Virus genome (UHGV): UHGV-0134778
Origin: a virus
Direction: 5' to 3' (one strand)
Length of the DNA: 64,000 nucleotides
Positions within the stretch are counted from its first letter, which is position 1; each line of letters begins with the position of its first letter. A program made the translations under genes and the position numbers. This document shows, piece after piece, positions 5,343-8,602 of this stretch. Under the pieces are notes generated by a model, which made no database searches, was not told the origin of the DNA, and saw nothing but the letters and a program-made list of their open reading frames with translations.

Positions 5343-5621
5343 ATGAGTTGTGAAAAATCTTTTTTCATTATCATCTACGGTAAGGATAACTGCCCACATT
5401 GTGTAAGAGCAAAAGAATTTGCAGTAAGCAAAGGTATACCTTTCGTATACAAGACGCTCGGTGAAGGATACACAAAAGAAGAGCTTATTGAGAAGTGTAG
5501 TCCATTTGTTCCCAGAACGTTGCCTCAGATCTTCTTGGAAAGCAACCTTGATAGTGTCCACATAGGTGGTGCTGACGATTTCATCTCTTTTGTTAAGAAT
5601 GGTCTTGGAGAGAAAAAGTGA
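5343..5621 (+). CDS. glutaredoxin/thioredoxin-like redoxin, T4 NrdC-like (92 aa)
   Basis: CPHC active-site motif in a thioredoxin-fold-sized protein; position between nrdB and nrdD. Confidence 0.7.
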   Translation: MSCEKSFFIIIYGKDNCPHCVRAKEFAVSKGIPFVYKTLGEGYTKEELIEKCSPFVPRTLPQIFLESNLDSVHIGGADDFISFVKNGLGEKK

Positions 5622-6478
5622 AAGTTGTAAAACGGGACGGCAGAGAAGAGGTCTATAACGGAGTTAAGGTAATCAAGGCGGCAGAGTCCGCCTTACTTGA
5701 GTCTGGGCATACTGAAGAAGAAGCTTACCGGATCGCTTGTGCGGTTAATGAAGTTGTTGCCAACAATCTACCAACCGACCAGTGCACGATCTCTGTAAAA
5801 AATATCCATATCCTTGTTGAAGATGCTCTTATGGATATGGGTTTAAAATGTGCAGCCAGAGAATATATCCAGTATAGACAGACAAGAGATAATAACAGAG
5901 AGGCAGGTGGAAAACTGCTTGCAGATATTAGTGGCTTCTTGGATCGAACTTGTGATGAATTTACAAAAGAAAACGCAAATAAGCCCACTAATCATGTACA
6001 TACTCATCGTGACCTGCTTGCAGGTATCCTTAGCAAACACCTTGCATCAACACAGATACTGCCAGATCGTGTCTCCGAAGAGCACAACAAGGGATTCATC
6101 CATGTGCATGATCTTGACTATCTGATCAGTCCGTTAACAAACTGCTGTTTGGTGAATTATCCGGATATGCTGGAAAACGGATTCAACATTGGCAACGCCC
6201 ATGTCAGTAAGCCGAAGTCAATAGGGGTTGCAACAACAATCCTCAGCCAAATCTCTAGTGCAGTAGCTAGTGCTCAATATGGTGGTCAGACCATGAGCCA
6301 TATTGATCATTATCTGGCGCAGTATGCTGAAGCAACCTATGAGAAGAATCTTAAATTTTGTCAGGAACATTGGTTGCCAGATGCTGAGACTGTTGCAATG
6401 CAAATGACAGATAAAGACGTGTTTGATAGTATGCAAACTTTGCTCTACCAAATCAATACGTTAACTTCTGTCAACGGT
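5618..6478 (+). CDS. nrdD: anaerobic ribonucleotide reductase NrdD, exon 1
   Basis: ATP-cone N-terminus (KVVKRDGREEVYNGVKV); frame ends ...SVNG then TAA, which is the first codon of the intron; exon end CAACGGT pairs with intron GCCGTTG (P1, U.G at splice site). Confidence 0.8.
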
Positions 6479-7276
6479 TAACAAACTGGCCGTTGTAAAA
6501 CTCTCCTAACCTCATAAGAGGGGTCGGTAAATCCGGCTAACGGGGAACGCTAAGGCGAAAGCTATGCCAATCCCGTGACTAGTTCTTACAGGAGTTGGAA
6601 CGGTTGTAACGACTAACGAAAGGCAGAGATGCTTGACAAACATTTCTGAACCGAGTAGTGTAGGGGTTAGTTGAAATACTAACTTCGAAATGGAGAGACT
6701 CTATGAAAAAGATCATTCTTAATGGTGAAGAATCGAACTACGTGATTGATGAGGTTGGAAACGTATACGGAAAACGTGGAATGCTGCACCCCATATTGTG
6801 GGGAGGTTATGGAAAAGGTAACAAGCATGTCAAACGCCGCTATATGTATTCTTTCAACCACAAAGGTAAGAAGATTCGAATCCAAACTTCAAGGGTTGTT
6901 GCCTTGTATTGTTTGCCAGATGTCCCAGAAGACCCTGAAAACTGGGAAGTGAATCATAAAGATGGCAATACATTGAATGATCATCCGTCTAACCTGGAGT
7001 GGGTTTTGCCGGAAGATAATAAGAGACATGCTTTCCGAACAGGGCTTTGTCCAGGCAAGTGCTACAGGAAAGTGCAGGCATACCGAGGGAAAACCTTGGT
7101 GGGTGAATATCCTTCACTCTATGCCTGTGCAAAAGCCTTAAATTTGAACGTAGGGAACGTCCATAGGGCTATCGAAGGAAATGCCGAAGGTAAGCATCTC
7201 ACAATAAAGGGTTATTATCTTATTGAAGTAGAGTAAGAGATAGTCTGGCCCTGTGGAAACACAGGGGTGGAGACAG
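6479..7276 (+). mobile_element. group I self-splicing intron in nrdD (798 nt) carrying a homing endonuclease gene
   Basis: P1 pairing with U.G at 6478; intron begins with in-frame TAA; R/S-like P7 strands (GACTAG about 6576 and ATAGTCT about 7240); P9 hairpin CCCTGTG-GAAA-CACAGGG; terminal G at 7276; exon 2 begins CAG complementary to CUG 5' of the guide sequence (P10); length multiple of 3 so exons are co-frame. Confidence 0.75.
6703..7236 (+). CDS. HNH homing endonuclease, intron-encoded (177 aa)
   Basis: HNH motif EVNHKDGNTLNDHPSNLEWVLPEDNKRHA; lies wholly within the nrdD intron. Confidence 0.8.
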   Translation: MKKIILNGEESNYVIDEVGNVYGKRGMLHPILWGGYGKGNKHVKRRYMYSFNHKGKKIRIQTSRVVALYCLPDVPEDPENWEVNHKDGNTLNDHPSNLEWVLPEDNKRHAFRTGLCPGKCYRKVQAYRGKTLVGEYPSLYACAKALNLNVGNVHRAIEGNAEGKHLTIKGYYLIEVE

Positions 7277-8539
7277 CAGACTCCATTCATCACATTAAGT
7301 TTAGGACTGGATACCTCAATCTTTGGTAGAATGATTACCAAAAACTACCTGAAAGTCCACAAAATGGGTCTTGGTGAAGAACGTATCACACCTGTGTTCC
7401 CTAAGGTGTTGTTCTTCCTGGAGGAGGGTATCAACATGAACCCCGAGGATCCTAACTATGATTTGAAACGATTAGCTCTGGAATGCTCTGCAGAGCGGAT
7501 TTATCCTGACTTCGTATCTGTACCACTAAATAGAAAAGTGACAGGTTCAACAGAAGGTAATGTCACAAGCATGGGTTGCCGGAGTTTTCTTAGCAAATAC
7601 AATGACTTGGAAACAGGAGAGGAGAAATACCTTGGCAGATTTAACTTAGGTGTTGTTAGCCTTAACCTACCAATGATTGCAGCCAAAGCTAAAACGGAAG
7701 GTGTTGATTTCTTTGCAGTTCTTGACGAGTACTTGGATCTGGCCTACGAGGCTCACCTTGTAAGGGTTAACCGTCTAAAAGGAACAAAGGCAGGGCAGAA
7801 CCCCATCATGTGGTGTGAAGGAGCCCTTGCTCGCCTGGATCCTGAAGAGAGTATTGATAAACTTTTCTATGACGGGTATGCTTCCATAAGTATTGGATAT
7901 ATTGGTGTGTATGAAACCTGCCAGATTTTAGGCAGAGAGGGAGACAAGTCCTTAGCTCTTGGGATCCTTCAGCACATGAAAGACGCTTGTGATCGGTACA
8001 AAAAAGAAAGTGGTCTGGCATTCAGCTTGTACGGCACTCCTTCAGAGAGCTTGTGCTATAAGGCTGCAACATGTCTAGATCGTGAATATCCTGAAGTGTT
8101 GAAGCACGAGCACGAATACCTTACCAACAGTTTCCACCAGCCCGTGTGGATCAATAGTTCACCTTTTGACAAGTGGAAGTATGAGGAAGGTTTTGCTATG
8201 ATCTCTTCTGGCGGCAACATTGGATACATAGAAACACCTAACCTGAAAAACAACCCGGATGCTTTGGAAGCCCTTGTCGATTTCGGGTATAAACACATTA
8301 TGTATTTTGGTATTAACCAACCTGTGGATAAATGCCTTAAGTGTGGATTCTCTGGTGAGTTCAGTGCAACAGCTAAAGGCTTTGTATGCCCAGAGTGTGG
8401 AAACCATGAAGAAGGAACGATCAGCGTGATTAGACGTGTATCTGGGTATTTGTCTAGTCCAAACTCCCGTCCTTACAACAAAGGTAAGCAAGCGGAAGTT
8501 ATAGAACGGGTTAAGCACTACGGAAGTTGTGGTTGCTGA
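7277..8539 (+). CDS. nrdD: anaerobic ribonucleotide reductase NrdD, exon 2
   Basis: Glycyl-radical motif RRVSGYL near C-terminus preceded by CLKCG...CPECG zinc ribbon; the track's METQGW N-terminus (GTG at 7253) is intronic. Confidence 0.8.
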   Translation, partial: QTPFITLSLGLDTSIFGRMITKNYLKVHKMGLGEERITPVFPKVLFFLEEGINMNPEDPNYDLKRLALECSAERIYPDFVSVPLNRKVTGSTEGNVTSMGCRSFLSKYNDLETGEEKYLGRFNLGVVSLNLPMIAAKAKTEGVDFFAVLDEYLDLAYEAHLVRVNRLKGTKAGQNPIMWCEGALARLDPEESIDKLFYDGYASISIGYIGVYETCQILGREGDKSLALGILQHMKDACDRYKKESGLAFSLYGTPSESLCYKAATCLDREYPEVLKHEHEYLTNSFHQPVWINSSPFDKWKYEEGFAMISSGGNIGYIETPNLKNNPDALEALVDFGYKHIMYFGINQPVDKCLKCGFSGEFSATAKGFVCPECGNHEEGTISVIRRVSGYLSSPNSRPYNKGKQAEVIERVKHYGSCGC

Positions 8540-8602
8540 TACTTGACAAAAGCCACAAGGATGTGGCATATTGTTATCACACAGTAAACTAGGAGGTGCA
8601 GT

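Follow-up and report, generated by a model that had tools for sequence, protein, structure and literature searches.

A predicted mobile group I intron with an HNH homing-endonuclease gene in nrdD of an rV5-like phage

The window analyzed here is a 64,000-nt stretch of the virus genome UHGV-0134778 in which nrdD, the gene for the anaerobic ribonucleotide reductase, is split into two open reading frames (ORFs) by an insert of 798 nt (6479 through 7276; + strand, as are all features below unless stated otherwise). Judged from comparison with its relatives, this insert is very probably a mobile, self-splicing group I intron of the IA2 type that carries an HNH homing-endonuclease gene and interrupts nrdD of an rV5-like phage after the Gly codon of ...NTLTSVNG|QTPF.... 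The region from 5618 through 8539 matches 121 records of rV5-like Escherichia coli myoviruses (genus Vequintavirus), with EI-SP-GF as the top-scoring record at 98.4% identity. Established here are the boundaries of the insert, its comparative fold, the selection that acts on both the exons and the endonuclease gene, its polymorphic presence or absence among the relatives, and a mosaic history.

Exon 1 (5618 through 6478) comprises 287 codons for the ATP-cone and N-terminal NrdD and has U6478 as its last base, as defined by the ORF list, Pfam, and intron-less alleles; its reading frame is stopped by TAA (6479 through 6481), the opening codon of the insert, which closes with G7276. Exon 2 (7277 through 8539; ORF list and Pfam) contributes 420 codons plus the stop and encodes the glycyl-radical domain. 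Both exons lie in one frame (798 = 3 × 266), and positions 1 through 154 of the Pfam NRDD profile are found in exon 1 and 156 through 562 in exon 2; therefore, no part of NrdD is missing. The original prediction, made from the letters of the window alone, had placed the ends of these two co-frame ORFs at 6478 and 7277, and its coordinates hold. When 200 nt from either side of 6478/7277 were joined and searched against a phage collection, intron-less relatives aligned gap-free over the junction (400 of 400 positions at 98% for ECP32); the continuous nrdD of these intron-less relatives matches the predicted exon ligation and contains nothing of the insert. Intron-less alleles with the same junction occur in ECP32, SYGMH1, naswa, and JES2013, and QINTLTSVNG|QTPFITLSLG is encoded alike by five intron-less phages and by all intron-carrying ones. 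The flanking bases fit no boundary other than 6478/7277 and, on these alignments, the intron boundaries are exact. The predicted ligated junction reads ...GTCAACGGT|CAGACTCC... (bases GGU|CAG) and yields a spliced NrdD of 707 aa (roughly 80 kDa, predicted) whose junction peptide spans TSVNGQTPFITL, that is, SVNG-QTPF.

An nrdD intron with exactly this junction is already known, as it is annotated in GenBank and RefSeq records of close relatives; the novelty attached to it by the original prediction was therefore overrated. The WalterGehring and HeinrichReichert proteins spliced at the junction are letter-for-letter identical to GenBank QXV85697.1 and QXV79969.1, the former also being identical to RefSeq YP_011997805.1, and joined coding sequence (CDS) features with a junction exactly equivalent to 6478/7277 are present in the BASEL records of close relatives. 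The BASEL paper used comparative genomics to set intron boundaries (PMC8594841). Literature searches found no published description of this intron and no splicing or cleavage study of it; the rV5 paper reports introns in the terminase gene only. The practical consequence is one of annotation, in which the two nrdD ORFs ought to be treated as a single gene joined at 6478/7277 and encoding one protein; many deposited Vequintavirus genomes still show two separate nrdD genes, accompanied by an HNH protein or by one labeled “hypothetical.”

The exon bases at the junction differ between allele types: intron-less alleles read GGG|CAA, whereas alleles with the HNH gene read GGT|CAG (window 6476 through 6478 and 7277 through 7279). 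Both differences are synonymous and correspond to the U of the U·G pair at the splice site and to the third pair of P10, which suggests either co-conversion or exons adapted to the intron. A separate observation at this site concerns V18 (NC_041937; locus L022, about 295 through 300), in which the bases CA, equivalent to window 7277 through 7278, are deleted exactly at the insertion site. The deletion frameshifts nrdD, the CDS annotation is absent there, and the exon haplotype is that of alleles with an intron devoid of an ORF; the intron may have been lost imprecisely, repair may have left a scar, or the sequence may contain an error.

The insert can be folded into a group I ribozyme. In P1 (6472 through 6495), exon bases CAACGGU (6472 through 6478) pair with the guide GCCGUUG (6489 through 6495) to form U6478·G6489; the ORF-less allele has AAACGGU/GCCGUUU here, a compensatory C-G to A-U change relative to the window. 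P3 pairs CUCUCC (6501 through 6506) with GGAGAG (6692 through 6697), and all six of its pairs covary across nine introns. Between P3 and J3/4 lie two extra hairpins (6510 through 6537): hpA (6510–6513/6518–6521) and hpB (6523–6527/6533–6537). Rfam alignment, folding, and comparison place P4 (6540–6545/6571–6576) and P5/P5a with its GAAA loop (6549 through 6567) next; the P6 hairpin (6582 through 6601), from folding, covaries with the ORF-less variant. The J6/7 consensus UUGUAAC stands just before the P7 5′ strand GACUA (6611 through 6615), which is followed by P7.1 (6624–6631/6641–6648) and P7.2 (6663–6671/6678–6686). P8 joins ACUCUA (6698 through 6703) to UAGAGU (7229 through 7234), with the HNH ORF as its loop. 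The RF00028 alignment supplies J8/7 (AAGAGA), the P7 3′ strand UAGUC (7241 through 7245), and a GAAA-capped P9 (7249–7255/7260–7266), together occupying 7235 through 7266, and a candidate P10 of 3 bp can form between CUG (6486 through 6488) and CAG (7277 through 7279). P1 with its splice-site U·G, TAA as the first intron codon, the P7 strands, P9, the terminal G, and a possible P10 had all been pointed out in the original prediction, and each can be read in the sequence. In subgroup IA2, P7.1 and P7.2 are joined by G-U-A (PMC3428280); in the window UGUA stands ahead of P7.2, with GUA directly adjoining it, and for this reason the intron is placed in subgroup IA2.

Support for this fold comes from a comparative set of introns comprising the ORF-less alleles, hits from a search of viral and metagenome contigs for the P4-P5 core, and a Bacillus phage match. 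P3, P4, P5/P5a, P7, P7.1, P7.2, and P9 occur in canonical order, with differing sequences, in every member of the set. P8 is likewise present in all members but L032, in which no P8 hairpin was found and which was excluded from the covariation count of nine introns; P6 was traced only in the four introns with an ORF-free P6. Across the extracted strands of the nine introns, 100% of cells are paired, and 21 of the 35 pairs show double-sided change, including all those of P3. The covariation score is 0.75 vs. 0.16 in shuffles (none of 500 shuffles reaches it), and pairing falls to 29 to 47% when the partner is slid by one to three columns. P3, P5a, P8, and P9 covary across the nine introns, and P6 does so with the ORF-less allele. 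The minimum-energy fold of the ORF-less allele (z = −3.7) contains P1, both extra hairpins, P4-P5, P6, the inner P8 hairpin, and P9. The group I assignment of the original prediction is supported by the intron-less and ORF-less alleles at the site and by covariation in P1, P3, P6, P8, and P9.

Searches with Rfam models gave partial matches. At the gathering level there is no match in the whole window. A relaxed search with RF00028 matched the J8/7-P7′-P9 end of the window intron with 25.1 bits (E = 4e-4) and P4 through P7 with 11.3 bits, and aligned the ORF-less allele end to end over 331 nt with 29.8 bits (E = 6e-6); the alignments agree with the conserved core strands UUGUAACGACUAA and AAGAGAUAGUCUGG. 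With an E-value threshold, the whole window yields only the known 3′ piece of the nrdD intron and no second intron. The covariance-model check suggested along with the original prediction gave matches by E value and scores under the cut-off.

Several of these observations weigh against a group I intron of this type. Both scores, 25.1 bits for the window and 29.8 bits for the ORF-less form, are below the RF00028 gathering cut-off of 50; P10 has only 3 bp in the window and 2 bp in the ORF-less variant; the Rfam alignment sets the P3 5′ strand inside the 3′ strand of hairpin B, unlike the comparative model; and the strands of the nine introns were picked by eye beside conserved anchors, so the 100% pairing is partly by construction. 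The subthreshold score is probably due to the ORF and the two extra P3-P4 hairpins, and partial covariance matches are typical of phage introns with nuclease genes according to a recent survey (PMC11878797); two introns related to it, L010 and L009-2, reach 83.6 and 70.5 bits, respectively. The Rfam placement of P3 was rejected: it has no complement in the window variant, whereas CUCUCC/GGAGAG is perfect and covarying.

The two covarying hairpins at 6510 through 6537 are common to at least eight other phage introns (including those at L008, L016, L017, and L029 through L032), found in unrelated viral and metagenome contigs and in a Bacillus phage. These introns keep the same P4-P5 core and reside in other genes, with their ORFs mostly in P6. 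The module is absent from T4 td, T4 sunY, the L010 intron, and the second nrdD intron of L009, and literature searches found no published description of such P3-P4 hairpins. A search for the core pattern in one genome per bacterial species gave no match, so a cellular copy was not found. It is conceivable, though we consider it doubtful, that the two hairpins mark a structurally distinct and undescribed subclass among the phage IA2 introns, one to which the Rfam model is insufficiently sensitive; if this were so, many phage genomes would contain overlooked introns of this type in genes that are now annotated as split.

Occupancy of the nrdD site varies among the 121 Vequintavirus records. The intron with the HNH gene is present in 28, with a ribozyme 98.7 to 99.6% identical to that of the window; in a further 14 the site holds an ORF-less intron of 257 nt, which is 86% identical over P1 through P7 and different from P7.1 to P8; in the remaining records the site is empty. 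FV3 (JQ031132, ORF106 through 108) and the BASEL phages WalterGehring (MZ501111), EmilHeitz, and MaxBurger share the intron of the window with only point differences, their HNH proteins being 98 to 99% identical to that of the window, and HeinrichReichert (MZ501073) has the ORF-less form. Members of one species can differ: the intron is present in FV3 but not in SYGMH1, and HeinrichReichert has the ORF-less form whereas the naswa site is empty. Vequintavirus thus presents one site in three states (empty, ORF-less intron, and intron plus endonuclease gene).

The intron and its exons also differ in history. Conservation across the region is highest in the ribozyme, at a mean pairwise identity of 99.4%, against 95 to 96% for adjacent exon and 91% for distal exon 2. 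Relative to EI-SP-GF, the window has 25 differences in 2,124 exon positions and 22 in the 798 of the intron (Fisher P = 0.004); relative to FV3, the corresponding counts are 157/2,124 and 5/798 (Fisher P = 9e-17). The window is therefore a mosaic of EI-SP-GF-like exons and an FV3-like intron, so the intron has moved between genomes independently of the exons, as homing or recombination would produce. On these comparisons, its history is decoupled from that of the exons, as expected of a mobile element.

Further elements of this kind occur in the relatives. WalterGehring, SophiaRose (GIY-YIG), Mangalyan, and nomine have a free-standing homing-endonuclease-type ORF of about 1 kb in the gap between nrdD and nrdG; in the window this spacer is short (8540 through 8697), with a promoter-like TTGACA-18-CATATT site and a hairpin at 8543 through 8572. 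In the WalterGehring record the DNA polymerase gene is joined across an intron that contains a homing-endonuclease gene; in the window this gene (45838 through 48615, − strand) is uninterrupted and encodes 925 aa. No further homing-endonuclease genes turned up when ten other large ORFs of the window were scanned with Pfam. The three states of the nrdD site, together with the second intron site and the free-standing endonuclease genes nearby, offer a convenient setting in easily grown E. coli phages in which to follow how homing elements are gained and lost in nature. No new principle is involved.

The intron-encoded protein of 177 aa (6703 through 7236), recognized as an HNH endonuclease in the original prediction, matches Pfam HNH_3 (29.4 bits vs. 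a cut-off of 24.8) and PHROG 59. It aligns with I-HmuI (PDB: 1U3E) over residues 8 through 160 (E = 5e-4), and its H85, N97, and N106 align with the catalytic H75, N87, and N96. None of the eight sequences compared has a disrupted copy of the gene, and the ratios of nonsynonymous to synonymous differences (pN/pS) are 0.02 to 0.09; the gene is maintained under strong purifying selection. Outside Vequintavirus nearly all matches to the protein have less than 60% identity, with one record at 60 to 80%; those listed reach at most about 58% over short stretches.

Whether this protein still works as a homing nuclease bears on the homing step and leaves splicing aside. A further point against a mobile element is that Asn84 aligns with D74 of I-HmuI, so the Asp before the catalytic His is not conserved; D74 is said, in the I-HmuI structure paper, to be a metal ligand, and nuclease activity is therefore not assured. 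The intron could splice while its protein serves only in DNA binding or as a splicing helper, with the element inherited mostly vertically or moved by general recombination. The weak match of the C-terminal, NUMOD-like domain (PF22083, 18.4 bits vs. a cut-off of 27) and the synonymous divergence of the HNH gene (pS of about 0.15, indicating that the element is not very young) would fit such a loss of function. We nevertheless consider it unlikely. Purifying selection extends across the whole HNH ORF, occupancy differs within species, and the intron and exons have mosaic histories. The position of residue 84 is moreover variable in the family, as shown by Asn-His in the unrelated L016 enzyme and Lys-His in the enzyme of the second nrdD intron of JEP1; the S4-2 enzyme has Asp there.

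For a homing intron, we infer the following course of splicing, nicking, and translational masking, on the model of phage group I introns already characterized. A ribosome translating exon 1 would halt at the UAA that opens the intron, and the RNA would then fold into P1 and P3 through P9. Free guanosine would attack after U6478, the terminal G7276 would dock, and the exons would be joined into an mRNA for the 707-aa NrdD. The HNH ORF fills the P8 loop exactly, with the P8 strands touching its start and stop codons, and the P3 3′ strand GGAGAG doubles as its Shine-Dalgarno sequence; with the start codon itself in P8, both translation signals of the HNH ORF, this codon and the ribosome-binding site, should be concealed once the ribozyme has folded. 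By analogy with I-HmuI, the HNH protein may nick the intron-less nrdD of co-infecting relatives near the insertion site, and the nicked alleles would then acquire the intron, with a short stretch of adjoining exon, through recombinational repair.

A different view of the locus is that nothing is spliced: the insert would be a homing-endonuclease cassette, and nrdD would be divided into two separately translated polypeptides that assemble. Many GenBank records do show two nrdD CDSs plus an HNH gene, exon 2 could start at the in-frame GTG at 7253, and there is precedent in the mobE-split NrdA of Aeromonas phage Aeh1, which is cited, together with one non-splicing HNH insertion, in PMC7344957. 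This reading is very improbable, however. No segment of the region is better conserved than the ribozyme, which retains a group I fold with covarying helices, and GTG 7253 is without a usable ribosome-binding site. The ORF-less allele has an in-frame TAA 15 nt upstream of the junction, so that a second polypeptide could be initiated there only farther downstream, at the cost of the invariant QTPFITLSLG.

Least credible of all is that nrdD has become a pseudogene in the intron-carrying phages: nrdD is dispensable in aerobic laboratory growth, and V18 has its frameshift at this very site, but all seven intron-carrying relatives compared have both exons open, and purifying selection on these exons is strong (pN/pS of about 0.01 to 0.09, with pS up to 0.43). 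An intein was rejected, as the first codon of the insert is a stop and in-frame translation with the host protein is precluded; a group II intron and translational bypass were rejected on the opening stop codon, the group I core, and the length of 798 nt.

Group I introns are known in similar settings, beginning with the IA2 intron of T4 nrdD (sunY), which lies in the same conserved region of the same host gene. Both introns begin with UAA(C) and have a P7.1/P7.2-type core. The T4 5′ splice site is 32 nt upstream of that in the window, inside the Tyr codon of AYEY|EVNTLFSSNG; the I-TevII ORF lies behind the T4 core, its end 21 nt short of the 3′ splice site, whereas the window ORF is in P8; and the T4 intron is without the two hairpins between P3 and J3/4. 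I-TevII is a GIY-YIG enzyme, as the original prediction had stated, whereas that of the window is HNH. The window intron has no blastn match in any T4-like phage record. From the distance between the sites, ORF placement, enzyme family, and lack of blastn similarity, the two introns are independent insertions into the same conserved stretch, as had been proposed.

Enzymes comparable to that of the window are I-HmuI and I-HmuII of the Bacillus phages SPO1 and SP82. I-HmuI has a similar size (174 vs. 177 aa) and a similar layout, in which an N-terminal domain precedes the HNH motif and a region resembling a helix-turn-helix, putative in the window protein, makes up the C-terminal part; the sequence similarity is low, and Asn replaces Asp74 in the window protein. 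The SPO1 and SP82 host introns are likewise IA2 (PMC3428280) and interrupt a DNA polymerase gene, unlike the nrdD host gene here. A second group I intron in nrdD of the same genus is inserted at SMG|CRSF in JEP1 (L003, about 3468 through 4217), phita32, and the IMG/VR contig L009 (2246 through 2485), and is absent from the window at 7561 through 7593. Its ORF-less copy scores 70.5 bits with RF00028, it has a T4 sunY-like core without the extra hairpins, and the HNH protein of the JEP1 copy is a distant paralog, 28% identical to that of the window. The SMG|CRSF site adjoins a Cys, which, from T4 NrdD, we take to be the active-site cysteine.

The genes around the locus are ordered nrdA, nrdB, glutaredoxin, nrdD, nrdG, and phoH, and the window contains no tRNAs. 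A promoter and terminator scan of 5300 through 9300 found promoter-like sites no commoner than in shuffled sequence; the intron has no such site ahead of the HNH ORF. The nrdD start differs between annotations: BASEL records use an ATG equivalent to window position 5831, and the alternative is GTG at 5618, which overlaps the glutaredoxin stop. The Pfam ATP-cone corresponds to residues 1 through 91 counted from GTG 5618, and a start at 5831 would cut most of this domain; GTG 5618 looks the more likely start. About 20 records labeled “Campylobacter phage” (MG0656xx) are 93 to 94% identical to the Vequintavirus nrdD region, and their host labels look doubtful.

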